Source: Escherichia phage 285P
Sequence record: NC_015249.1
DNA length: 39,270 nucleotides
Reading direction: 5' to 3' (one strand)
The position numbers and the translations under genes are program-made. Every line of letters begins with the position of its first letter. The stretch's first letter is position 1. The notes under the pieces are model-generated. The model had not been told where the DNA came from. It made no database searches and saw only the letters and a program-made list of their open reading frames with translations. Below are positions 6,703 to 18,342 of the stretch, in pieces.

Positions 6703-7734
6703 ATGGAAATCACATTCAAGACTAACCCTTTTAAAGCTGTATCCTACGTTGAGTCTGCCATTAAGAAAGCACTCGACAAAGCTGGCTACCTGATTGCTGA
6801 CACTAAGCATGATGGTGTGCGTGGTAACATCGTGGTTGATAATACGGCTGACTGCCTGTGGCTGTCCCGTGTCTCTAAGACCATCCCCGCGCTTGAGCAC
6901 CTTAATGGGTTCGACCAACGCTGGGCTAATGTTCTCAAAGATGACCGCTGGATTTTCCCTGATGGCTTCATGCTGGATGGTGAACTGATGGTCAAAGGCG
7001 TAGACTTCAACACAGGGTCTGGCCTACTGAGAACCAAGTGGCTCAAGAAGACAAACTGTGGATTTGATATTGGTGGAGTAGAGCCTCTCAAGGGGAGTAA
7101 AGTAGACTTCTGCTTAGACCCTAAGAAACTTAAGGTTGTCCTGTATGCCGCTATGCCGTATCACGATATGGTAGAAGGCAAAGAGTACGGCGTTATGTCC
7201 CTCCTGATGCAAGAGCATGTGCGTTCCCTCATTCCGGTTCTTAGCGAACACTTCCCGGAAATCACTTGGGAACTATCTGAGGCCAAAGAAGTCTACGATA
7301 TGGTAGAACTTCAGGAACTCTACGAGAAAGCCCGTGCCGATGGTCATGAAGGTCTGGTCGTCAAAGACCCGCTGGAAGTCTACAAGCGCGGGAAGAAGTC
7401 TGGCTGGTGGAAGATGAAGCCTGAGAATGAAGCTGATGGTGTCATCGTTGGACTCAATTGGGGTACTCCGGGTCTGGCTAATGAAGGTAAAGTGATTGGC
7501 TTTGAGGTTCTCTTGGAGTCCGGTCGTGTAGTCTCTGCCAACAACATTAGCCAAGCGTTGATGGATGAGTTTACTGCTGCCGTCAAACATGCTGAGTCTG
7601 TGGGTATGGGTATGCCTTACACTGGCTTCGCCTGTCAGGTTGCCTACATGGAGGAAACTCCTGATGGTTCTCTGCGTCACCCTTCGTTCGTTATGTTCCG
7701 TGGTACTGAAGATAACCCAACGGAGAAGATGTAA
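6703..7734 (+). CDS. 1.3: ATP-dependent DNA ligase
   Basis: 343 aa; KxDGxR adenylation motif (DTKHDGVRGN) and extensive identity to T7 ligase as recalled (GLVVKDP, KSGWWKMKPENEADG, EGKVIGFEVLLESGR, RHPSFVMFRGTEDNP). Confidence 0.95.
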   Translation: MEITFKTNPFKAVSYVESAIKKALDKAGYLIADTKHDGVRGNIVVDNTADCLWLSRVSKTIPALEHLNGFDQRWANVLKDDRWIFPDGFMLDGELMVKGVDFNTGSGLLRTKWLKKTNCGFDIGGVEPLKGSKVDFCLDPKKLKVVLYAAMPYHDMVEGKEYGVMSLLMQEHVRSLIPVLSEHFPEITWELSEAKEVYDMVELQELYEKARADGHEGLVVKDPLEVYKRGKKSGWWKMKPENEADGVIVGLNWGTPGLANEGKVIGFEVLLESGRVVSANNISQALMDEFTAAVKHAESVGMGMPYTGFACQVAYMEETPDGSLRHPSFVMFRGTEDNPTEKM

Positions 7735-7916
7735 TGATAATCTTTGACCAAGGCATTTGGAAGGTATGGCAACACCCACACTTACAGGTATTCCACATCC
7801 TGAAGTGGTCTGAGGGAGACGACCCAGCCTCTTATGGGCGCAAGTGGGATTACTTCACACAGAAAGAGTGTAGAAGCATATCCGAGGTAAAGGCATATCT
7901 TCACGCCAACATGTAG
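7734..7916 (+). CDS. hypothetical protein (gene 1.4/1.5 position)
   Basis: 60-aa ORF overlapping the ligase stop (TAATG); no recognised homolog. Confidence 0.4.
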   Translation: MIIFDQGIWKVWQHPHLQVFHILKWSEGDDPASYGRKWDYFTQKECRSISEVKAYLHANM

Positions 7917-7923
7917 TAACACT

Positions 7924-7958
7924 GGTCAGACTTTCGGGTCTGGCCTTTTCGTGTTTCT
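7924..7958 (+). terminator. intrinsic terminator, candidate early terminator TE for host RNAP
   Basis: Seen: GGTCAGAC-TTTCGG-GTCTGGCC 8-bp stem followed by TTTTCGTGTTTCT; T7 TE lies just after the ligase region. Confidence 0.6.
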
Positions 7959-7978
7959 ATTAGACTCACTATGGAGGA
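7957..7978 (+). promoter_or_regulatory. degenerate T7-type promoter-like element (CTATTAGACTCACTATGGAGGA)
   Basis: Seen: GACTCACTAT core but 1-nt short before GG and altered -17..-12; near-duplicate of the element at 8065. Confidence 0.35.
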
Positions 7979-7986
7979 ACAACCTC

Positions 7987-8067
7987 ATGCTATTTCTAAT
8001 TGCTGCTGCTGTCTTTGCCACGTTTGCCTTCGTTATCATTGACGACAACTGCTGGCCTGATTGCTAA
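7987..8067 (+). CDS. tiny hydrophobic peptide (26 aa, MLFLIAAAVFATFAFVIIDDNCWPDC)
   Basis: ATG 9 nt after a GGAGG; too short for the ORF track; hydrophobic. Confidence 0.25.
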   Translation: MLFLIAAAVFATFAFVIIDDNCWPDC

Positions 8068-8087
8068 TACGACTCACCTATGGAGGA
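8065..8087 (+). promoter_or_regulatory. T7-type promoter variant with 1-nt insertion (TAATACGACTCACCTATGGAGGA)
   Basis: Seen: perfect -17..-5 then CTATGG; GGAGG doubles as the RBS for the 8095 ATG. Confidence 0.45.
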
Positions 8088-8094
8088 AACACTT

Positions 8095-8358
8095 ATGTTA
8101 CGACTACACTTCAACAAATCAAACGGTATCTTTTCGGCTCGTGGTTCCGACCGCTCGACGGTTCTTGCCTCTGAGAAACATGCAGTCATTCCTAAAGTGC
8201 TTGGCTCGACCATTGAGTTAGCACCTCGTGTTCACGCTGTAATCACCACTGGCTTATATAAAGAAGCGACCACTGGCTCCCGGCCTTTCATTCCGGTTCT
8301 TGTCACCCGTTTCCCTAAAGTCCGTCTGGTCATTGCGCGTATCAAGGAGGTGTTCTAA
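8095..8358 (+). CDS. gene 1.6-like hypothetical protein
   Basis: 87 aa from the second Met of ORF 8080-8358 (the first Met lies inside the promoter); position after the ligase block matches T7 gene 1.6. Confidence 0.55.
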   Translation: MLRLHFNKSNGIFSARGSDRSTVLASEKHAVIPKVLGSTIELAPRVHAVITTGLYKEATTGSRPFIPVLVTRFPKVRLVIARIKEVF

Positions 8359-8669
8359 TGGTCTGTATGGCATGTTTAGAGAGTGATGACCGCTACCCAC
8401 ATACCTGTGAACCTGTAGCTAAACCACAAGATATAGAGGGTGTTCGGACTCCTAGCCACTATATGTTGTTTGACGACATTGAGGCTATCGAAGTGATTGC
8501 CCGGTCGATGACCCGTGAACAGTTCAAGGGGTACTGCTTAGGGAACATCCTTAAGTATCGCCTACGTGCTGGTAAGAAATCTGAACTAGCATTCTTAGAG
8601 AAGGACATGGCGAAAGCTGGGTTCTATGGTGAACTGTACGAGAAACACAAAGGTAAGTGCTATGCTTAA
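8358..8669 (+). CDS. 1.7: gene 1.7-like protein (short form of T7 nucleotide kinase gp1.7)
   Basis: 103 aa; CxxC...YPHTC and C-terminal SHYMLFDDIEAIEVIARSMT..FKGYC.GNILKYRLRAGKKSELA.LEKD match T7 gp1.7 as recalled, but ~90 internal residues of the T7 protein are absent. Confidence 0.7.
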   Translation: MVCMACLESDDRYPHTCEPVAKPQDIEGVRTPSHYMLFDDIEAIEVIARSMTREQFKGYCLGNILKYRLRAGKKSELAFLEKDMAKAGFYGELYEKHKGKCYA

Positions 8670-8763
8670 TGACATCTTATATTTCCTGCTAATTTGTGTT
8701 GGAATGGGTGCTTGCCTGTTCCTCATGTTTTGGGCTATAGAGGTGGAATATGGAAAAGCCTAG
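8662..8763 (+). CDS. tiny hydrophobic peptide (33 aa, [33 protein letters not shown])
   Basis: Overlaps the 1.7 stop in another frame; hydrophobic; weak RBS. Confidence 0.25.
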   Translation: MLNDILYFLLICVGMGACLFLMFWAIEVEYGKA

Positions 8764-8848
8764 CGAATGGTGTGAGCGTATGTTTGAAAAGACAGGCAAC
8801 ACCGATTACCTTGAATTATATAATCACTGGAAGGAGAGAGGACAATGA
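8750..8848 (+). CDS. small protein, gene 1.8 position (32 aa)
   Basis: GAGGTGG RBS 6 nt upstream; stop overlaps the gene 2 ATG (ATGA), suggesting coupling. Confidence 0.35.
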
Positions 8849-9036
8849 GCACTCTGAATAAAGGGTCACTGGTAAACGGTGACAAGAAGTTCTTCGCTAC
8901 GGTAGAAGGCCAAGGCCAATCGTTCGAAGTACCTGTGTTCGCTACGTCTCTTGAAGAGGCCAATGAGTTAGCTGAGTGGCAATACGTCCCTGCTGGCTTC
9001 GCTGTAACACGCATCCGTCCAGACCGTAAGGTTTAA
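8845..9036 (+). CDS. 2: gene 2 protein, host RNA polymerase inhibitor
   Basis: 63 aa; near-identical in pattern to T7 gp2 (KKF.ATVE....SFEVP......[21 protein letters not shown]). Confidence 0.85.
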
Positions 9037-9056
9037 TAGGACTCACTAATGGGAGA
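9034..9056 (+). promoter_or_regulatory. T7-type promoter (phi2.5-like) TAATAGGACTCACTAATGGGAGA
   Basis: Seen: overlaps the gene 2 stop; followed by a 5' stem-loop GGGAGA..TTTCCC. Confidence 0.7.
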
Positions 9057-9104
9057 CACTAACGTTTCCCACTTTTAACTTTCAGAAACTAAAGGAGAAT
9101 CATT

Positions 9105-9803
9105 ATGGCATTCGCAAAACGTAAAGTATTCACTTCCGCTCGTGGTGTTGCTGAACCTTACTGCTATCTGGCAAAGCCGGACTTCGGTAGTGGTGACTTC
9201 AAGAACGAACGTGGTGTCTACAAAGTATCACTGACTGTATCCAACGACGACCCTCGCTGTCAGAAGATGATTGACGAGATTGTCGAAGCCCATGAGACGG
9301 ACTACGCTGCTCGACTCGAAGAGTACGAAGCTAACCCGCCGAAAGTTGTCAAGGGTAAGAAACCGCTGAAGCCATATGTTGGCGACATGCCTTTCATGGA
9401 TAACGAAGATGGAACCACTACGTTCAACTTCAAGTGCTACGGCTCGTTCACTGACAAGAAGACTGGTGAGAACAAACCAATCGACTTGGCTATCGTGGAC
9501 TCCAAAGGTAAGCGCATCCGTGGTGAGCGTCCAGCTATCTCTGGTGGCTCTGAACTGAAGATTAAATACACTCTGTTCCCTTACGGTTGGTCTGCTGTAG
9601 CAGGTGCTTCCGTTAAGCTGCAACTGGATTCCGTGATGCTGATTAAGCTGGTCGAGTTCGGTGGTGGTGATGACGATTGGGGTGATGAAATCGAAGAAGA
9701 TGGGTACGAAGCCGATGAAGCACAGACCCGCAAGCCGCAAAACGACTCTGGCTGGAATGAAGAACCAGAAGAGGACGGTGAAGACGAAGACGGTGACTTC
9801 TAA
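9105..9803 (+). CDS. 2.5: single-stranded DNA-binding protein gp2.5
   Basis: 232 aa (T7 is 232); acidic C-terminal tail ending DGDF as in T7 gp2.5; many identical blocks. Confidence 0.95.
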   Translation: MAFAKRKVFTSARGVAEPYCYLAKPDFGSGDFKNERGVYKVSLTVSNDDPRCQKMIDEIVEAHETDYAARLEEYEANPPKVVKGKKPLKPYVGDMPFMDNEDGTTTFNFKCYGSFTDKKTGENKPIDLAIVDSKGKRIRGERPAISGGSELKIKYTLFPYGWSAVAGASVKLQLDSVMLIKLVEFGGGDDDWGDEIEEDGYEADEAQTRKPQNDSGWNEEPEEDGEDEDGDF

Positions 9804-10249
9804 TGGCTAAGGGTTATGCAGGTCGAGGCACTCGTGTGGGTGCCTTTCGCTCTGGCTTGGAGGATAAGGTAAGTAAGCAACTCGAAGGGAAGAACATTAA
9901 GTTCGACTACGAGCGCTGGCGTGTGCCATATGTTGTTCCTGCAAGCAACCATACCTATTGCCCGGACTTCCTGTTACCTAATGGCATCTTTGTGGAAACC
10001 AAAGGTCTGTGGGATAGTGACGACCGCAAGAAACACTTACTGATTCGTGAACAGTATCCTGAACTTGATGTGCGCATCGTGTTCTCTTCAAGCCGCTCCA
10101 AGCTGTACAAAGGGTCTCCTACCAGCTACGGTGAGTGGTGCGAGAAGCATGGCATTCTGTTTGCTGATAAATTAATTCCAGTTGATTGGCTGAAAGAGCC
10201 TTCTAAGGATGTTCCATTCGATAAATTTAAAGAGGTGAAGAAGAAATGA
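9803..10249 (+). CDS. 3: endonuclease I (Holliday junction resolvase)
   Basis: 148 aa; VGAFRSGLEDKVSKQLE, PASNHTY.PDFLLPNGIFVETKGLW, KGSPTSYGE match T7 gp3. Confidence 0.95.
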   Translation: MAKGYAGRGTRVGAFRSGLEDKVSKQLEGKNIKFDYERWRVPYVVPASNHTYCPDFLLPNGIFVETKGLWDSDDRKKHLLIREQYPELDVRIVFSSSRSKLYKGSPTSYGEWCEKHGILFADKLIPVDWLKEPSKDVPFDKFKEVKKK

Positions 10250-10701
10250 GTAAGGTACAATTCAAACCACGCGCTATGACAGAAGCAATCTTTGTCCACT
10301 GTAGCGCAACCAAGGCGTCCATGAATGTTGGACTGCGTGAAATCCGTCAGTGGCATAAAGAACAGGGCTGGCTTGATGTAGGCTACCACTTCATTATTCG
10401 CCGTGATGGTACAATCGAAGAAGGCCGTCCGGTCGATGTCGTTGGGTCTCACGTTAAGGACTGGAATAGTAAGTCGGTCGGTGTGTGCCTCGTTGGTGGT
10501 ATCGACGATAAGGGCAAACACGAAGCTAACTTTACGCCAGCACAGATGCACTCTCTTAAAGAGAAACTCGCAGACCTGCTGGACATGTATCCAGATGCAG
10601 AAGTAAAAGCGCACCACGATGTGGCACCTAAAGCGTGTCCGTCATTCAACTTGAGCCGCTGGCTGAAGACTGGTGAATTAGTAACTAGTGATTGGGGTTA
10701 A
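10246..10701 (+). CDS. 3.5: N-acetylmuramoyl-L-alanine amidase (T7 lysozyme; RNAP inhibitor)
   Basis: 151 aa; AIFVHCSATK, IRQWHKEQGWLDVGYHFII, GVCLVGGIDDKGK, AHH.VAPKACPSF match T7 gp3.5. Confidence 0.95.
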   Translation: MSKVQFKPRAMTEAIFVHCSATKASMNVGLREIRQWHKEQGWLDVGYHFIIRRDGTIEEGRPVDVVGSHVKDWNSKSVGVCLVGGIDDKGKHEANFTPAQMHSLKEKLADLLDMYPDAEVKAHHDVAPKACPSFNLSRWLKTGELVTSDWG

Positions 10702-10705
10702 TATT

Positions 10706-10798
10706 ATGATGATTATCCACGAGATGGGTCTGTACGATTTGATTTATCGCCTCGCGTTCATGCTGGCAATGGTCTACATTCTGACCCGCAAGGATTAA
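10706..10798 (+). CDS. tiny hydrophobic peptide (30 aa, MMIIHEMGLYDLIYRLAFMLAMVYILTRKD)
   Basis: Hand-translated; immediately after the amidase gene; end overlaps the next promoter. Confidence 0.25.
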   Translation: MMIIHEMGLYDLIYRLAFMLAMVYILTRKD

Positions 10799-10817
10799 TA
10801 GAACTCACTATGGGAGA
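10795..10817 (+). promoter_or_regulatory. T7-type promoter variant (phi3.8/phi4-like) TTAATAGAACTCACTATGGGAGA
   Basis: Seen: ACTCACTAT-GGGAGA with one base fewer than consensus; followed by 5' hairpin GGGAGA-GCCGAAAGGTT-TCTCCC. Confidence 0.55.
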
Positions 10818-10868
10818 GCCGAAAGGTTTCTCCCTTTGTTCGCTAAAATTGTATAAGGAGTAATCACT

Positions 10869-12820
<1,952 letters not shown>

Positions 12821-12822
12821 AT

Positions 12823-12845
12823 CAATACAACTCACTAATGGGACA
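12823..12845 (+). promoter_or_regulatory. T7-type promoter (phi4.3-like) CAATACAACTCACTAATGGGACA
   Basis: Seen: followed by 5' hairpin GGGACA..TGTTCCC. Confidence 0.65.
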
Positions 12846-12888
12846 GACACTCTGTTCCCACTTATCAATCCACTTAAGGAGAATCACA

Positions 12889-13101
12889 ATGTTTAAATTC
12901 ATCAACACTCTTGGTAAGCTGGTAGTTAAAATGTACTTCCGTGAAGCTAAACGTCTGAACGACAAGGCACGTAAGGATGCAGAACAGGCTCAACGCTTGG
13001 CGAAACGGGCACGTCTACTGTCTGAAGATGCAAGTGCTGGCGTTACGTCTGCTGCTAAGATTGCAGCGAAAGCAACCGACCTGAACAAGTTCTTCCTGTA
13101 A
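12889..13101 (+). CDS. 4.3: gene 4.3 protein
   Basis: 70 aa (MFKFINTLGKLVVKMYFREAKRLNDKARKDA...LNKFFL), resembles T7 gp4.3 as recalled (same length). Confidence 0.7.
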   Translation: MFKFINTLGKLVVKMYFREAKRLNDKARKDAEQAQRLAKRARLLSEDASAGVTSAAKIAAKATDLNKFFL

Positions 13102-13280
13102 TGGTTACGATAACCCTTGTGCTCACTCTGATAACTGTGAGCGGACAAACAATAAGTCAAGTCCCTATCACGGCACCAAAGGCTGAGGCATACGAGATAT
13201 GCGAACAGCAAGGGCGCTCGTGGTCTAAGGACTTGATGAAGAACGGCAGGGTTTTCACTGCCAACTACAACTGTATCTAA
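13101..13280 (+). CDS. small ORF with N-terminal hydrophobic segment and two Cys (59 aa)
   Basis: Hand-translated (MVTITLVLTLITVSGQTISQ...CEQQGRS...NYNCI); start overlaps the 4.3 stop (TAATG); no obvious SD. Confidence 0.3.
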   Translation: MVTITLVLTLITVSGQTISQVPITAPKAEAYEICEQQGRSWSKDLMKNGRVFTANYNCI

Positions 13281-13294
13281 TAGGAGTACATAAC

Positions 13295-13597
13295 ATGGCT
13301 ATTAAATTCCCCGGCAACACAATCCGTCTGTCTGACACCATCGACCAGTATGCTCGTCGAGTGCACATCAACGTTCGCAATGGCAAGGTAACTCTGGTCT
13401 ACCGTTGGAAAGACCACAAGTCCACCAAGGCTCACACACAGCGTGTGACTCTGGATGATACACAGGCAGGTCGTCTGCTGGCTTCCGTTGCTGTAGCTGC
13501 TACCGTGGCTGTAGGTGAAGACAATGTTCGTCAGGTTCTGCTGGGTAAGACCGTGGAGTCTGAGGGAAACATGCTTGCGGACAAGTGTGAAGAGTAA
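13295..13597 (+). CDS. hypothetical protein (gene 4.5 position)
   Basis: 100-aa ORF with AGGAG RBS; no firm homolog recalled. Confidence 0.6.
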   Translation: MAIKFPGNTIRLSDTIDQYARRVHINVRNGKVTLVYRWKDHKSTKAHTQRVTLDDTQAGRLLASVAVAATVAVGEDNVRQVLLGKTVESEGNMLADKCEE

Positions 13598-13598
13598 G

Positions 13599-13643
13599 AG
13601 TTAAACTAAAGGTCATCTTAACGGGTGGCCTTCGTGATTAACT
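13599..13643 (+). promoter_or_regulatory. conserved RNase III-type hairpin element, copy 3 (R4.7-like)
   Basis: Seen: AGTTAAACTAAAGGTCATCTTAACGGGTGGCCTTCGTGATTAACT. Confidence 0.55.
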
Positions 13644-13655
13644 TTTGTATGAAAT

Positions 13656-13678
13656 CTATTCAACTCACTAATGGGAGA
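13656..13678 (+). promoter_or_regulatory. T7-type promoter (phi4.7-like) CTATTCAACTCACTAATGGGAGA
   Basis: Seen: good -10..+6, weaker upstream half. Confidence 0.55.
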
Positions 13679-13686
13679 ACAACACT

Positions 13687-14088
13687 ATGCGTAATCGTAA
13701 TGTAATCGAAGCTGAAATCGCTAAACTGGAAGCTGAACTGGCAGACATCAAGGAATACGAATGTGCTCGTGACTCCGCTGTCCACATCCTGAAGAACTTA
13801 GGGTGGACTCGTGTTCGCGGTAAGTGGGTGCAACCAGTGAATCGTCCTGACCTGAAGGTATTCGATAAGGACACCATGACCCACATTAAGGCTGGTGACT
13901 TCTGCACATCAACTGAGACATCCTCTCTATGGTACGTGCGCACGGTCGCTGGCAACATCTGCTGGTGCTCACGAGTGTCCCGCATTGCTCCTAATGGAAC
14001 CTTAGTGACCAGCAACAACGTTGGAATCAAAGCTGAGAACCTGAAGGTAATCAACGTGAAAGACTATATGGGATACACCCATCGTTAA
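13687..14088 (+). CDS. hypothetical protein (gene 4.7 position)
   Basis: 133-aa ORF directly after the R4.7-like element and promoter; T7 gp4.7 is of similar size. Confidence 0.65.
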   Translation: MRNRNVIEAEIAKLEAELADIKEYECARDSAVHILKNLGWTRVRGKWVQPVNRPDLKVFDKDTMTHIKAGDFCTSTETSSLWYVRTVAGNICWCSRVSRIAPNGTLVTSNNVGIKAENLKVINVKDYMGYTHR

Positions 14089-14107
14089 ACTTTAAGGAGT
14101 AAACACA

Positions 14108-16222
14108 ATGTTACTATCCGACATCGAAACAAACGGGTTGCTGCACAACGTTAGTCAATTTCACTGTGCGGTGACTTACGACTACACAACTGACCAGTAC
14201 ATCCGTTATCGACCTGATGACTTTGGGGCATACATTGATGCTCTCGAAGCCGAGGTTGCTCGTGGTGGTCTCATTGTGTTCCATAACGGTCACAAGTATG
14301 ACATCCCGGTAATCGAGCTGCTCGCCAAGAAACTGTTAGGCCGCGACGTTAAGTTCCCGAAAGAGAACGTACTGGATACCCTCGTGATGTCCCGCTTGAT
14401 TTACTCTAACATCAAAGACACCGATGCTGGTCTGCTACGTTCTGGCAAGCTGCCGGGTAAACGTTTTGGTTCCCACGCTCTGGAGGCTTGGGGTTATCGC
14501 TTAGGCGAAATGAAGGGTGAGTACAAGGACGACTTCAAGGCTTCACTGGCTGAGTCTGGTGAAGAATATGTTGATGGTATGGAATGGCTCCTGTTCAACG
14601 AAGACATGATGGAATATAACGTTCAAGACGTTGTAGTCACCAAGGCTCTCTTCGAGAAACTTTGTAGCAACACATTCTATTTCCCTAACGAGACACCTGC
14701 TGGAAGCACAGAAGCAGACCGTTTCTGGAATGGTAGCCTTGAGGCTGTTAAACTGGAACATGATGCTGCATGGTTGTTAGCTAAGATGGAACGTAATGGT
14801 TTCCCGATTGACATTAAGTCTCTTGAGAACCTGTACGCAGAACTCGCTGGTAGACGTGGTGAGCTACTCGTAGAGTTAACCAATACGTTTGGCTCATGGT
14901 ACTCCGCTAAGGGCGGTACTGAAGCATTCAGACACCCTCGTACCGGAAAGCCGCTCACTAAGTATCCTCGTGTTAAGTACCCGAAACAGGGTGGCATCTT
15001 TAAGAAGCCTAAGAACAAGAAGCAACGTGAGGGATTAGAGCCGTGCGAGTTGGATACCCGCGATTACGTTGAGGGTGCTCCGTATACTCCGGTTGAGCAC
15101 GTTGTGTTTAACCCTGCTAGTCGTGACCACATCACTCGTGTGCTTACCAAAGCTGGCTGGGTGCCCGTTGAGTTCACTCCTAGTGGTGCACCAAAGGTAG
15201 ACGATGAGGTATTGGAACACGTTAAGGTAGACGACCCGGATGCACAGCGTTGCATTGAGTTGATTAAAGAATACCTTATGATTCAGAAACGTATCGGTCA
15301 GGTTGCTGAAGGTGATAACGGCTGGCTCCGTATGATTGGAGATGATGGTCGTATTCACGGAAGCGTTAACCCGAACGGTGCGGTAACTGGTCGTGCAACT
15401 CATAGTTTCCCTAACGTGGCACAGGTGCCTTCCATCCGTGCTGCATATGGTGAACCTTGCCGTGCTGCTTTCGGTGCCGAGCACAACATGAAAGACGGTA
15501 AGCCAGACCCTTGGATTCAAGTTGGTGTGGATGCGTCCGGCCTTGAGCTACGATGCTTGGGCCACTTCATGTATCGTTATGATGAGGGTGAGTACGTTGA
15601 GACTATCCTCACTGGTGACATCCATACGAAGAACCAATTGGCTGCGGGTCTACCAACTCGTGACAACGCTAAGACGTTTATCTATGGGTTCCTCTATGGT
15701 GCTGGCGCTGCGAAGATAGGACAGATTGTTGGTGGTACTGCCGAAGACGGTAAGCGACTCATAAAGAACTTCCTTGAGCAAACTCCGGCTATCGCTGCGT
15801 TACGTGAAGCAATCACAGGCACACTCGTCAAGGACTCTAAGTGGGTTGGCGGTGAACAGAAAGTAACTTGGAAACGCCGTTGGGTTCGAGGCTTGGATGG
15901 TCGTAAAGTCCACGTCCGTAGTCCTCACGCTGCGTTGAACACCTTGTTGCAGTCTGCTGGTGCACTTATTTGTAAACTGTGGATTGTCGAGACTGAACGT
16001 CTGTTACTGGAAGCTGGCCTTAAGCATGGCTGGGATGGTGACTTTGCGTACATGGCTTGGGTCCACGACGAGATTCAGGTAGCTGCGCGTACACAAGAGA
16101 TTGCCGATAAGATTGTCGAGTTGGCACAGCAAGCGATGCGCAATGTGGGAGACCACTTTAACTTTAGATGTCAGTTAGATACCGAAGGTAAGACTGGCGC
16201 AAACTGGAAAGATTGTCACTAA
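14108..16222 (+). CDS. 5: DNA polymerase (family A, with 3'-5' exonuclease domain)
   Basis: 704 aa (T7 gp5 is 704); long identical stretches to T7 gp5 as recalled (LIVFHNGHKYD, GSVNPNGAVTGRATH, DASGLELRC, RDNAKTFIYGFLYGAG, HDEIQV). Confidence 0.97.
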   Translation: MLLSDIETNGLLHNVSQFHCAVTYDYTTDQYIRYRPDDFGAYIDALEAEVARGGLIVFHNGHKYDIPVIELLAKKLLGRDVKFPKENVLDTLVMSRLIYSNIKDTDAGLLRSGKLPGKRFGSHALEAWGYRLGEMKGEYKDDFKASLAESGEEYVDGMEWLLFNEDMMEYNVQDVVVTKALFEKLCSNTFYFPNETPAGSTEADRFWNGSLEAVKLEHDAAWLLAKMERNGFPIDIKSLENLYAELAGRRGELLVELTNTFGSWYSAKGGTEAFRHPRTGKPLTKYPRVKYPKQGGIFKKPKNKKQREGLEPCELDTRDYVEGAPYTPVEHVVFNPASRDHITRVLTKAGWVPVEFTPSGAPKVDDEVLEHVKVDDPDAQRCIELIKEYLMIQKRIGQVAEGDNGWLRMIGDDGRIHGSVNPNGAVTGRATHSFPNVAQVPSIRAAYGEPCRAAFGAEHNMKDGKPDPWIQVGVDASGLELRCLGHFMYRYDEGEYVETILTGDIHTKNQLAAGLPTRDNAKTFIYGFLYGAGAAKIGQIVGGTAEDGKRLIKNFLEQTPAIAALREAITGTLVKDSKWVGGEQKVTWKRRWVRGLDGRKVHVRSPHAALNTLLQSAGALICKLWIVETERLLLEAGLKHGWDGDFAYMAWVHDEIQVAARTQEIADKIVELAQQAMRNVGDHFNFRCQLDTEGKTGANWKDCH

Positions 16223-16239
16223 TACAGGAGACACATATC

Positions 16240-16524
16240 ATGGCTATTACTAAACGTTTTAAAGTATCATTTGAAGTTACCGCTGTAATCAACTCTGAGA
16301 TGGAGAAAGGCTTCACCGAGGAACTGGTTCATTTGGCTAAGAAGGCTGCGGCAGGTGAGAAGATTAGTCCTCGTGACCGTGAACTTCTGGTACAAGCGCT
16401 GACCCATGGTGTCGAGGGTGCTATCTCCTTTGCCGCCAAACAGGGTATGCGAGAGTTCATTCGTACCGAGTTACCAGAAGATGGTCTGAAGGTTTCTCCA
16501 GCAACTATCCGTGAGGTGAAGTAA
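16240..16524 (+). CDS. 5.5: gene 5.5 protein (H-NS-binding protein homolog)
   Basis: 94 aa from MAITKRFKVSFEVTA...SPATIREVK; matches the T7 gp5.5 pattern. Confidence 0.75.
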   Translation: MAITKRFKVSFEVTAVINSEMEKGFTEELVHLAKKAAAGEKISPRDRELLVQALTHGVEGAISFAAKQGMREFIRTELPEDGLKVSPATIREVK

Positions 16525-16733
16525 TGGGTGAATATCTTCGTGTACTGGCGGCTATCAAAAGCTGCCCTAAGACCTTTCAGTCGAACTATGTGCGCAACAA
16601 TGCGTCACTGGTGGCTGAGGCTGCGAGTCGAGGTCATATCTCTTGCCTATCAGTCGATGGGCGTAATGCTGGCGCTTGGGAAGTAACGGGCGCTGGTGTC
16701 CGATTCCTGAAGAAGATGGGAGGTTGCGTATGA
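16524..16733 (+). CDS. 5.7: gene 5.7 protein
   Basis: 69 aa; near-identical to T7 gp5.7 as recalled (LRVLAAIKSCPKTFQSNYVRNNASLVAEAASRGHISCL). Confidence 0.85.
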   Translation: MGEYLRVLAAIKSCPKTFQSNYVRNNASLVAEAASRGHISCLSVDGRNAGAWEVTGAGVRFLKKMGGCV

Positions 16734-17644
16734 GCGCAATTACACTGAAGGAGTTCTATGAGTTACGCCAAGGTAAATCCGATAAGGGTGTCTTGGTCAT
16801 GGATGGTGACTGGCTGGTATTCCAAGCGATGGCAGCAAGTGAAGTCGAGACCGATTGGGGCGATGATTGCTGGACATTAGAGTGCGACCACGGGAAAGCG
16901 TGGAACATTCTGGTTGACTCCATTAAGTCCTATGCGAGCCGCAAGAAGGCTTGGCGTGATGCACCTATCGTATTGGCCTTCACCGACTCTGTGAACTGGC
17001 GTAAGGAATTAGTCGACCCAACCTATAAGGAGAACCGTAAGGCATCCCGTAAGCCTGTAGGCTACCGTGCGTTTGTCGAGCGTGTTCAAGCCTGTGAGGA
17101 CTGGACGTCTATCCTTGAGGACCGACTTGAGGGTGATGACGTAATGGGAATCATTGGGTCTGGTGCTAAACATTTTGGTTTCAAGAAGGCTGTACTGGTC
17201 TCCTGTGATAAGGACTTTAAGACCATCCCTGATTGTGACTTCTTGTGGTGCACGACTGGTAACATCTTGACTCAAGACCAGACGACTGCCGACTACTGGC
17301 ACATCTATCAGACCATCAAAGGTGACTTGACAGATGGCTATGGTGGCATTCCGGGCTGGGGAGAGACTACCGCTGAGTGGCTGGAGAACCCGTATGCCTT
17401 TGAACAGGTTGAGAAAACTTTCAAGTCTGGTGCTCGTAAGGGACAGACAGTTCTCGAATGGAAAAAGGTTGACATGGGTGAGCGAACCCTATGGGAAGCC
17501 ATTGTGACACTTGGTGCAAAAGCTGGGATGACCGAAGAGGAAATCATTAAGCAAGGCCAGATGGCTCGCATACTTCGATTCGAAGAGTACAACTTTATCG
17601 ACAAGGAGATTTACCTATGGTCGCCGGAACAGTTGCGTTCGTAA
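16730..17644 (+). CDS. 6: 5'-3' exonuclease gp6
   Basis: 304 aa from MSAITLKEFYELRQ; GVLVMDGDWLVFQAM, PIVLAFTDSVNWRKELVDP, DFLWCTTGNILTQ, KQGQMARILRF match T7 gp6; ATGA overlap with 5.7. Confidence 0.95.
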   Translation: MSAITLKEFYELRQGKSDKGVLVMDGDWLVFQAMAASEVETDWGDDCWTLECDHGKAWNILVDSIKSYASRKKAWRDAPIVLAFTDSVNWRKELVDPTYKENRKASRKPVGYRAFVERVQACEDWTSILEDRLEGDDVMGIIGSGAKHFGFKKAVLVSCDKDFKTIPDCDFLWCTTGNILTQDQTTADYWHIYQTIKGDLTDGYGGIPGWGETTAEWLENPYAFEQVEKTFKSGARKGQTVLEWKKVDMGERTLWEAIVTLGAKAGMTEEEIIKQGQMARILRFEEYNFIDKEIYLWSPEQLRS

Positions 17645-17703
17645 TGTTCGCAATCGTAGCCTTCGCTATGGTGTGGGCTGCATTTATAGCTAAGAGTGTG
17701 TAA
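17644..17703 (+). CDS. tiny hydrophobic peptide (19 aa; gene 6.3 position)
   Basis: MFAIVAFAMVWAAFIAKSV; TAATG overlap with the gene 6 stop. Confidence 0.25.
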   Translation: MFAIVAFAMVWAAFIAKSV

Positions 17704-17731
17704 CTCTAGGCATTCTTCTCGACAGTGAAAT

Positions 17732-17754
17732 CAATACGACTCACTATTGAGAGG
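17732..17754 (+). promoter_or_regulatory. T7-type promoter (phi6.5-like) CAATACGACTCACTATTGAGAGG
   Basis: Seen in sequence. Confidence 0.7.
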
Positions 17755-17805
17755 GGTGCCTATATGATACCTACTTTAAGTTTAACTTTAAGGAGAACAT
17801 TAATT

Positions 17806-18051
17806 ATGTTAACCCCTATCAAGAAGTATATGGAGAACCCACAAGATATTCCTAACGTTCCTCGTGCAACTATGGAGTACCTACAGGTTCAATACAATGC
17901 TGGATATGCTATTCAGTCAGGACTAATCAACCGATTGAAACAGGCTGGATGGTCTGAAAGCTACATCGCTGGGTTCCTCGCGGGTCTCAACTATGCGTCT
18001 CAAACTCTGGACGACATGGAGGCAATCCGTAAGGAACAGGCTGAGTCCTAA
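17806..18051 (+). CDS. 6.5: gene 6.5 protein
   Basis: 81 aa from MLTPIKKYMENPQDIPNVPRATMEYLQV; matches T7 gp6.5 N-terminus as recalled. Confidence 0.75.
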   Translation: MLTPIKKYMENPQDIPNVPRATMEYLQVQYNAGYAIQSGLINRLKQAGWSESYIAGFLAGLNYASQTLDDMEAIRKEQAES

Positions 18052-18066
18052 TCGTATGGAGGTCTT

Positions 18067-18342
18067 ATGTGCTTTTCACCAAAGATTAAGACACCTAAAG
18101 TAAAGACTGAATCCATCCGAGCTATCGACCCTGCTCCACTGACTGAGGAACCGAAAGGTATTCTCTTTGGTGGCGAAGAGGACAACGATAGCGGAACCTC
18201 TTCTGAGGTGCCAACGGGTGGCAAGAAGTCCCTGAAGGTGAAACTGGATGACTCCGTTGAGAAGTCCAAGAAGGCAGACTCCGATGCTGCCAAGAAGAAG
18301 TCCAAATCTGGTATCCGTACCAGTGTCTTTAAGAAGAAATAA
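18067..18342 (+). CDS. 6.7: gene 6.7 virion protein
   Basis: 91 aa starting MCFSPKIKTPK as in T7 gp6.7. Confidence 0.85.
   Translation: MCFSPKIKTPKVKTESIRAIDPAPLTEEPKGILFGGEEDNDSGTSSEVPTGGKKSLKVKLDDSVEKSKKADSDAAKKKSKSGIRTSVFKKK

Follow-up and report, generated by a model that had tools for sequence, protein, structure and literature searches.

Five short hydrophobic reading frames in the class II region of Escherichia phage 285P are probably small non-essential genes

The genome of Escherichia phage 285P (NC_015249.1) contains five short open reading frames (ORFs) for hydrophobic peptides, each set in a gap between larger genes, and these five ORFs are the subject of our analysis. The window, by which we mean the whole stretch of 39,270 nucleotides (nt) that was analyzed, belongs by nucleotide comparison to a T7-like podophage of the genus Berlinvirus. 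Positions 7900-11000 are 96% identical over their full length to Escherichia coli phage vB_EcoP_S523 and 92-97% identical to some 40 other Berlinvirus members (BA14, Kvp1, PYPS50, BP12A and others), while positions 17300-18100 are 99.6% identical to S523. The gene order is that of the T7 class II region (1.3 ligase, the early terminator TE, 1.5, 1.6, 1.7, 1.8, 2, 2.5, 3, 3.5, 4A ... 5, 5.5, 5.7, 6, 6.3, 6.5). An original prediction, made from the letters of this DNA, had listed the five ORFs, and we found all of them at the coordinates it gave. They are a known feature rather than a new one, since one or more close relatives already carry an annotation of each; in the careful annotation of BA14, four of them coincide exactly with gp1.5, gp6.3, and two "unknown product" ORFs located between genes 3.5 and 4A. 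We consider it likely that the five ORFs are genuine, non-essential class II (middle-period) genes of this T7-like Berlinvirus, and that each produces a peptide of ~26-33 amino acids (aa) consisting essentially of one membrane-spanning helix. Two of them fill canonical T7-group slots, those of gene 1.5 and gene 6.3, and the other three, which we name by their first positions (8662, 10706, and 10869), are flexible accessory mini-genes. Genes 1.5 and 6.3 are canonical T7-group genes, reportedly dating from the 1983 T7 annotation. The five ORFs, gene 1.8, and the promoters, hairpins, and terminator described with them all lie on the plus strand.

Gene 1.5 (7987-8067) encodes a 26-aa peptide, MLFLIAAAVFATFAFVIIDDNCWPDC, in which an N-terminal hydrophobic helix is followed by an acidic DDNCWPDC tail, and it is annotated as gp1.5 in BA14, Kvp1, and PhiV-1. 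Upstream of the gene 1.5 unit, a terminator scan placed the TE hairpin and the T-run that follows it at 7924-7945, the position of the annotated TE of BA14 and Kvp1. Promoter phi1.5 (CTATTAGACTCACTATGGAGGAA, 7957-7979) was located by alignment at the annotated phi1.5 of BA14, and its +1 region, ~13 nt before the ATG, provides the Shine-Dalgarno (SD) sequence of gene 1.5 with the same spacing as in T7 (promoter 7778, ATG 7791). At the other end, promoter phi1.6 (8065-8087; annotated in BA14) takes the gene 1.5 stop codon TAA as its first three bases. Gene 1.5 of the T7 group (T7 gp1.5, 29 aa; T3 gp1.5, 25 aa) resembles this arrangement in its slot after the ligase gene and TE and between phi1.5 and phi1.6, in its 13-nt leader, and in a hydrophobic helix of ~17 residues that ends in a DDxxPD tail. 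The 285P peptide matches phrog_10145 over its full length (E=4.6e-17), a family that T3 gp1.5 matches as well (E=2.8e-16), and residues M1, D20, and P24 are nearly invariant in a gp1.5 alignment that spans the Berlinvirus, T3, T7, and Klebsiella-phage versions.

The 8662 ORF (8662-8763, 33 aa) is an accessory hydrophobic ORF between genes 1.7 and 1.8 whose first 8 nt cover the end of gene 1.7 with its stop (ATGCTTAA) and whose last 14 nt cover the start of gene 1.8. It matches phrog_29660 (E=1.4e-18). It is annotated at the same position in phage 13a (AS5_0012, "unknown product"), where it is a direct homologue, and in CarlSpitteler (bas68_0019), and tblastn revealed homologues in 71 T7-like phage records. 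BA14, on the other hand, lacks this cassette: compared to BA14 and Kvp1, the ORF is an 88-nt insertion flanked by TATG, to which the original overlap with gene 1.7 (ATGCTTAA) now belongs and which supplies a new start for gene 1.8. Gene 1.8 itself (8750-8848; annotated as gp1.8 in BA14) encodes a hydrophilic 32-aa protein that matches phrog_1312 (E=3e-14) and is homologous to T7 and T3 gp1.8 across 76 loci, with a ratio of nonsynonymous to synonymous change (dN/dS) of 0.11. It is coupled on both sides, its own stop overlapping the gene 2 start (ATGA), and represents a sixth coupled mini-gene that the original prediction had missed. In phage K1F (locus L110, 401-499), an unannotated homologue of the 8662 ORF is wedged between gp1.75 and gp1.8. 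We considered the 8662 ORF as a counterpart of K1F gp1.75 and rejected this by coordinates, gp1.75 being a different 75-aa gene further upstream.

The gap between genes 3.5 and 4A holds two of the ORFs. The first, the 10706 ORF (10706-10798), starts 4 nt past the stop of gp3.5 (amidase) and encodes a 30-aa peptide, MMIIHEMGLYDLIYRLAFMLAMVYILTRKD, with a C-terminal hydrophobic helix and a match to phrog_25602 (E=5.4e-21). It is the direct homologue, at the same position, of the BA14 "unknown product" AS7_0017 and was found in 39 phage records. The aligned homologues fall into two allelic types, all intact, of which 285P carries the non-BA14 type. The ORF is an insertion of ~97 nt flanked by TTAATA, and its own stop recreates the 5' edge of the phage promoter phi3.8/phi4 (10795-10817; annotated in BA14 and Kvp1), so that the promoter contains the stop codon. 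The cassette is missing in P483, JSS2, Berlin, and ETEP21B, where the gp3.5 stop itself forms the promoter edge. T3 gene 3.7 (35 aa) lies in this slot too, between the amidase gene 3.5, which it follows directly, and phi3.8, but its product is unrelated in sequence, being Cys-rich and hydrophilic (MRMICIRCDKPLKS...) and belonging to phrog_17413 rather than phrog_25602. In Shigella phage A7 (MK685668 / NC_048180, 29156-29245), the 10706 homologue is evidently misannotated as a "carbohydrate ABC transporter permease."

Downstream of the promoter, RNA folding predicts a small hairpin at the 5' end of the transcript (GGAGAGCC-GAAA-GGUUUCUCC, 10813-10833), where T3 has its RNase III site R3.8; a 17-aa ORF, MGEPKGFSLCSLKLYKE, begins at the ATG of the promoter and spans this hairpin without an SD. 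The second hydrophobic ORF of the gap, the 10869 ORF (10869-10955), encodes 28 aa behind a strong SD, matches phrog_25193 (E=2.6e-22), and is the direct homologue, again at the same position, of the BA14 "unknown product" AS7_0018. It ends 10 nt before the gene 4A start (10966), and the 4A SD begins right after its TAG stop. We found this ORF in 50 Berlinvirus records, and it is unannotated in 16 of the 20 that were listed among these 50. The Berlin allele, MYNLKEHVFVILICVLIIGGACLRPFL, has diverged heavily in nucleotide sequence yet retains the helix and the C-terminal LRPFL, and the homologue in Salmonella phage BP12A (L005, 4124-4219) keeps its frame through an in-frame 12-nt tandem duplication near its 5' end. 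In the 3.5-4 gap of Klebsiella-type T7-like loci (L037-L083), we observed one to four different 30-40-aa single-helix ORFs, such as MSNLKDFDIIPLLAYGVLGLWGVTFLIAFFMSCVDGTAL and MNKVFDVFFMFVLTVAVITIAVLVGTIAIGVLHEVGLI, which are unrelated to those of 285P.

The fifth ORF, which we assign to gene 6.3 by position (17617-17703), encodes a 28-aa peptide, MVAGTVAFVMFAIVAFAMVWAAFIAKSV, has an AAGGAG SD 8 nt upstream, and shares its first 28 nt with the end of gene 6. In BA14 it is named gp6.3 and begins at the corresponding ATG; CarlSpitteler lists it as a hypothetical protein. A shorter version (17644-17703, 19 aa) had been predicted; this ORF and its TAATG overlap are present, but it lacks an SD and is just the 3' part of the 28-aa frame. 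Since the ATG and SD at 17617 are invariant in relatives, while at 17644 D226 has Val and P694 has Ala in place of the Met, the ORF probably starts at 17617. Like T7 and T3 gene 6.3, it is the last ORF of class II, overlaps the 3' end of gene 6, lies upstream of R6.5 and phi6.5, and would encode a single hydrophobic helix, and a transmembrane mini-ORF occupies this position in T7, T3, and two other lineages. A long predicted hairpin (17707-17762; z=-5.8, with 0/200 shuffles as stable) spans phi6.5, which is annotated in BA14, and lies in the same place as R6.5 of T3. We interpret this hairpin, from its predicted fold and position, as the analogue of the RNase III site R6.5; it begins just after the gene 6.3 stop and does not compete with the ORF as an explanation. 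The outer stem may extend to, and constrain, the 3' tail of gene 6.3, which is the site of a 5-nt indel among relatives.

We measured hydropathy as the best 15-residue Kyte-Doolittle window and ranked it against a six-frame background of 184 ATG-initiated ORFs from the window, each 19-40 aa long. The predicted hydrophobicity was borne out by this measure: the 10869, 7987, 17617, and 8662 ORFs make up four of the top five among the 184, the 10706 ORF lies at the 93rd percentile, and a hydrophobic stretch of transmembrane length is present in 5/5. The gene 6.3 peptide has a best value of 2.67 and a tail of just KSV or TL, versus ARIIKSLHDTK in T7. Strong SD sequences precede the 7987 (GGAGGA), 10869 (AAGGAG), and 17617 (AAGGAG) ORFs by ~8 nt, with duplex energies of -8.5 to -9.3 kcal/mol (-9.3 kcal/mol for gene 1.5) that fall in the top 2.5-4% of all plus-strand ATGs and in the same range as those of neighboring genes. 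At 8662 and 10706 the SD is weak, and both of these ORFs overlap or nearly abut an upstream stop. The coupling to an upstream stop that had been predicted for most of the ORFs is rarely a literal TAATG or ATGA. Profile matches connected four of the ORFs to PHROG families with E-values of 1e-17 to 1e-22. A Pfam search with all peptides returned no significant family (the sole match, DUF6358 at E=0.048, was below the cutoff), and an Rfam search of 7700-18200 at E up to 1 returned no RNA family.

Frame conservation across relatives had been suggested as a check on the ORFs, and we ran it on a comparison set of 80 gp3.5 and 15 gp6 neighborhoods from IMG/VR plus ~12 GenBank genomes, aligning each ORF together with its 45-nt flanks. 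Homologues of four ORFs were all intact, with synonymous changes in significant excess. Gene 1.5 was open in 22/22 unique homologues with a dN/dS of 0.26 (1.20 and 1.28 in the other frames; synonymous-excess P=6e-7), and the 8662 ORF in 9/9 with a dN/dS of 0.16 (0.58 and 1.36; P=2e-8). The 10706 ORF was intact in 13/13 (dN/dS 0.20; other frames 0.99 and 1.92; P=1.5e-5), as was the 10869 ORF in 17/17 (0.45; 0.72 and 1.70; P=0.01). Indels in the homologues of these four ORFs are in frame. Gene 6.3 was intact in 17/19 unique homologues, with a dN/dS of 0.68 against 0.34 and 1.89 in the other frames. Replacements tended to conserve hydropathy in gene 1.5 (P=0.005), the 10706 ORF (P=0.03), and gene 6.3 (P=0.02). 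These alignments indicate clear purifying selection at the protein level on the 7987, 8662, 10706, and 10869 ORFs, and for these four we regard the question of gene versus artefact as well settled. As a candidate in an alternative frame we also considered positions 7971-8042, a Cys-rich 23-aa ORF (MEEQPHAISNCCCCLCHVCLRYH) that overlaps gene 1.5; it is open in almost all relatives, but its dN/dS is ~1.3, and we rejected it as a gene. Since this frame stays open without a coding-type dN/dS, the dN/dS test discriminates between frames, and openness alone proves little.

We next asked how far the ORFs could be non-coding products of chance, that is, by-products of promoter, terminator, and RNase III spacers that are open because the spacers are short and the relatives close. 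In dinucleotide shuffles of each gap, 13-48% yielded an ATG ORF of at least the observed length, so length by itself is not unusual; the non-coding 7971-8042 frame is likewise open in nearly all relatives, and the gene 6.3 region adjoins the strong R6.5 hairpin and is deleted in Berlin. However, for each gap just 0.6-4% of shuffles gave a hydrophobic ORF of this length, and none of 2000 shuffles of the 3.5-4A gap gave two. Changes in the alignments are biased toward third codon positions, and the synonymous excess occurs only in the proposed frames, unlike the 7971-8042 control. The strong SD sites, the lack of any Rfam family in the region, and the confinement of hydrophobic mini-ORFs to the transcribed strand across 80+ loci also speak against chance, which we consider a highly improbable explanation.

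A second alternative is that the ORFs are translated solely to pass ribosomes to the following gene (1.8 and 2, or 4A), to make its mRNA accessible, or to protect the mRNA, the peptide sequence being irrelevant. The spacing of the ORFs fits this idea, with stop/start overlaps or very short gaps at 8662, 8750, 8845, and 10706, and with the 10869 stop lying so close to the 4A ATG and its SD; the near-neutral evolution of gene 6.3 fits it as well. A role in coupling alone, however, does not account for a dN/dS well below 1 in four ORFs, for conserved end motifs (DDNCWPDC, LRPFL, and EVEYGK), or for the peptide design of the 10869 ORF that persists in the Berlin allele. Moreover, relatives without the 8662 or 10706 cassette have gene 1.8 or the promoter directly abutting the upstream gene, in T3 the stretch from R3.8 to gene 4A holds no ORF, and the 4A leader is ordinary in RNA structure, the fold of 10813-10995 being no better than that of shuffles (z=-0.66). 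We therefore judge it unlikely that coupling or spacing explains the five ORFs, and continue with the reading that they are genes.

Work on T7 and T3 provides some genetic background for two of these genes. Ligase-deleted T7 and both T3 lines acquired parallel mutations that destroy gene 1.5 (PMC2696425), and expression of T7 gp1.5 inhibits growth of E. coli in minimal medium, an effect suppressed by stringent-like RNA polymerase alleles (PMC13483052). For gene 6.3, a substitution in T7 affects lysis time (PMC2680503), and the gene was not among the removable genes recovered in a T7 genome-reduction screen (PMC9825161). Genetic work on T7 and T3 links these two genes to fitness, to lysis timing, and to the growth state of the host. 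In the literature, we found no usable ribosome-profiling (Ribo-seq) or proteomic detection of T7 gp1.5 or gp6.3.

Besides the ordinary length of the ORFs, several points weigh against the conclusion that all five are genuine genes for membrane peptides. The published phenotypes, which we counted in favor of the conclusion, concern the T7/T3 proteins and not those of 285P; the gene 1.5 knock-outs could moreover reflect local expression effects beside the deleted ligase gene. T7 gp1.5 belongs to PHROG 12128, is ~28% identical to the 285P protein, and resembles it only in architecture. Likewise, T7/T3 gp6.3 (37 aa, with a basic C-terminal tail) has no detectable homology to the 28-aa peptide of 285P, which has no such tail. 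Both the coding status and the membrane location of the five ORFs in 285P are read entirely from sequence, and the dN/dS events were inferred codon by codon from related sequences rather than on a tree. Gene 6.3 is the main concern. It has no synonymous excess (P=0.22), a 5-nt indel rewrites its tail from KSV to TL, and in phage Berlin and locus L094 it is cut to MVS* with a 30-nt deletion, such that it could be a barely constrained ORF.

The first nine codons of gene 6.3 lie within gene 6, which is read in the +1 frame (the one with a dN/dS of 0.34). Variable sites in gene 6.3 number 18, 7, and 11 at codon positions 1, 2, and 3, with the second position spared, and the alignments suggest that gene 6.3 evolves almost neutrally apart from its kept hydrophobicity. 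Against Pfam PF17637 (DUF5516; cutoff 25 bits), the 6.3 peptide gave no match at E up to 10, while the positive controls T7 gp6.3 (56.5 bits, E=2e-15) and T3 gp6.3 (63.4 bits, E=1.4e-17) were recovered. A PHROG search with the peptide gave no convincing match (best E=0.23), and tblastn against phage genomes gave no match, probably due to the low-complexity filter, so nucleotide alignments were used instead.

Across T7-like phages, we surveyed distinct gap sequences on both strands for hydrophobic ATG ORFs of 20-45 aa. Such ORFs were present on the plus strand in 62/88 gaps between genes 1.3 and 1.6, 35/87 between 3.5 and 4, and 17/25 between 6 and 6.5, and the minus strand of the same gap sequences held no hydrophobic ATG ORF of that size. 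The three slots contained 39, 21, and 10 distinct peptides, respectively. This diversity of unrelated peptides in different genera raises a third alternative, that slots behind strong promoters and SDs keep producing or exchanging expressed mini-ORFs that are weakly or transiently useful, in other words young proto-genes with fast turnover. The idea is most plausible for gene 6.3, which is nearly neutral, can be lost, and is not homologous to the T7/T3 DUF5516 proteins, and the presence or absence of whole cassettes agrees with it. It is harder to reconcile with a single gene 1.5 design across genera, with clear purifying selection on four ORFs within Berlinvirus, or with an 8662 ORF family that spans Berlinvirus, Teseptimavirus, and Kayfunavirus, and as an account of the five ORFs we find it improbable. 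Genuine, non-essential genes remain our preferred explanation.

The five ORFs had also been proposed to form a set of membrane-active micro-proteins or, failing that, conserved spacing elements. We found instead five unrelated families with differing evolutionary behavior, gene 6.3 being nearly neutral and lost in phage Berlin, so they do not constitute one set. The notion of conserved spacing elements is contradicted by the precise presence and absence of the 8662 and 10706 ORFs, which as cassettes are cleanly absent from close relatives with intact flanking genes. Homologues of these two cassettes extend beyond Berlinvirus and include those of 13a, K1F, and 64795_ec1, and the short direct repeats at their borders suggest exchange by micro-homology at gene ends and promoters (8655-8765, TATG; 10695-10800, TTAATA, which forms the gp3.5 stop and the 5' edge of the promoter). 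A broader possibility, which we regard as doubtful, is that the 1.3-1.6, 1.7-2, 3.5-4, and 6-6.5 slots of T7-like phages, short gaps beside class II promoters and gene ends, are dedicated nurseries or exchange points in which unrelated single-helix micro-genes are repeatedly born or swapped as exact cassettes at TTAATA and TATG. The peptides would then act as host-specific membrane effectors, for example, as tuners of lysis timing or inhibitors of membrane-associated defense or stress pathways, rather than being inert leftovers.

The 8662 and 10706 ORFs are probably gained and lost as exact cassettes at stop/start or promoter micro-homologies. How the peptides might work can be outlined only tentatively. 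After synthesis, the five peptides might insert into the host inner membrane and there influence the membrane physiology of the cell as small modulators, either by binding to larger membrane proteins or by disturbing the bilayer, and the outcome could be a tuning of, for example, lysis timing or the host growth state. Any membrane activity of the five peptides is suggested by their hydropathy alone, and the mechanism as a whole is weakly supported. In size and design, the 285P peptides resemble the bacterial single-helix small membrane proteins AcrZ, MgrB, PmrR, and KdpF and the type I toxins Ibs, Ldr, and TisB, which have ~20-50 aa and one helix. Such single-helix peptides likely act by binding a larger membrane protein or by perturbing the membrane. 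Phage holins, antiholins, and the single-gene lysis proteins of ssRNA phages are comparable in size and one-helix architecture (small lysis proteins: PMC7693330). The 285P peptides have no sequence relationship to any of these proteins, and their ORFs lie outside the T7 lysis cassette (genes 17.5, 18.5, and 18.7).

While our results leave the current understanding of T7-like phages unchanged, they illustrate that much of the coding capacity of a well-studied phage family lies below the usual ORF cutoffs, and the comparative evidence justifies a consistent annotation of the five ORFs. It is plausible that single-helix peptides produced in mid-infection regulate membrane processes of the host.

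Two further small ORFs were noted in the surroundings. Upstream of TE, a hydrophilic 60-aa ORF (7734-7916; phrog_6957) abuts the ligase stop in the T7 gene 1.4 slot; it is unrelated to the hydrophobic T7 gp1.4, and it is present in S523, BSP161, SPLA4, and pO103 and absent from BA14 and Kvp1. At 13101-13280, a 59-aa ORF that just misses the 60-aa cutoff begins with a hydrophobic segment (MVTITLVLTLITVSG...) and contains two Cys residues. It matches phrog_6794 (E=1.9e-25), is annotated in PhiV-1 and Carena, and probably encodes another small membrane or secreted protein of the class II region.

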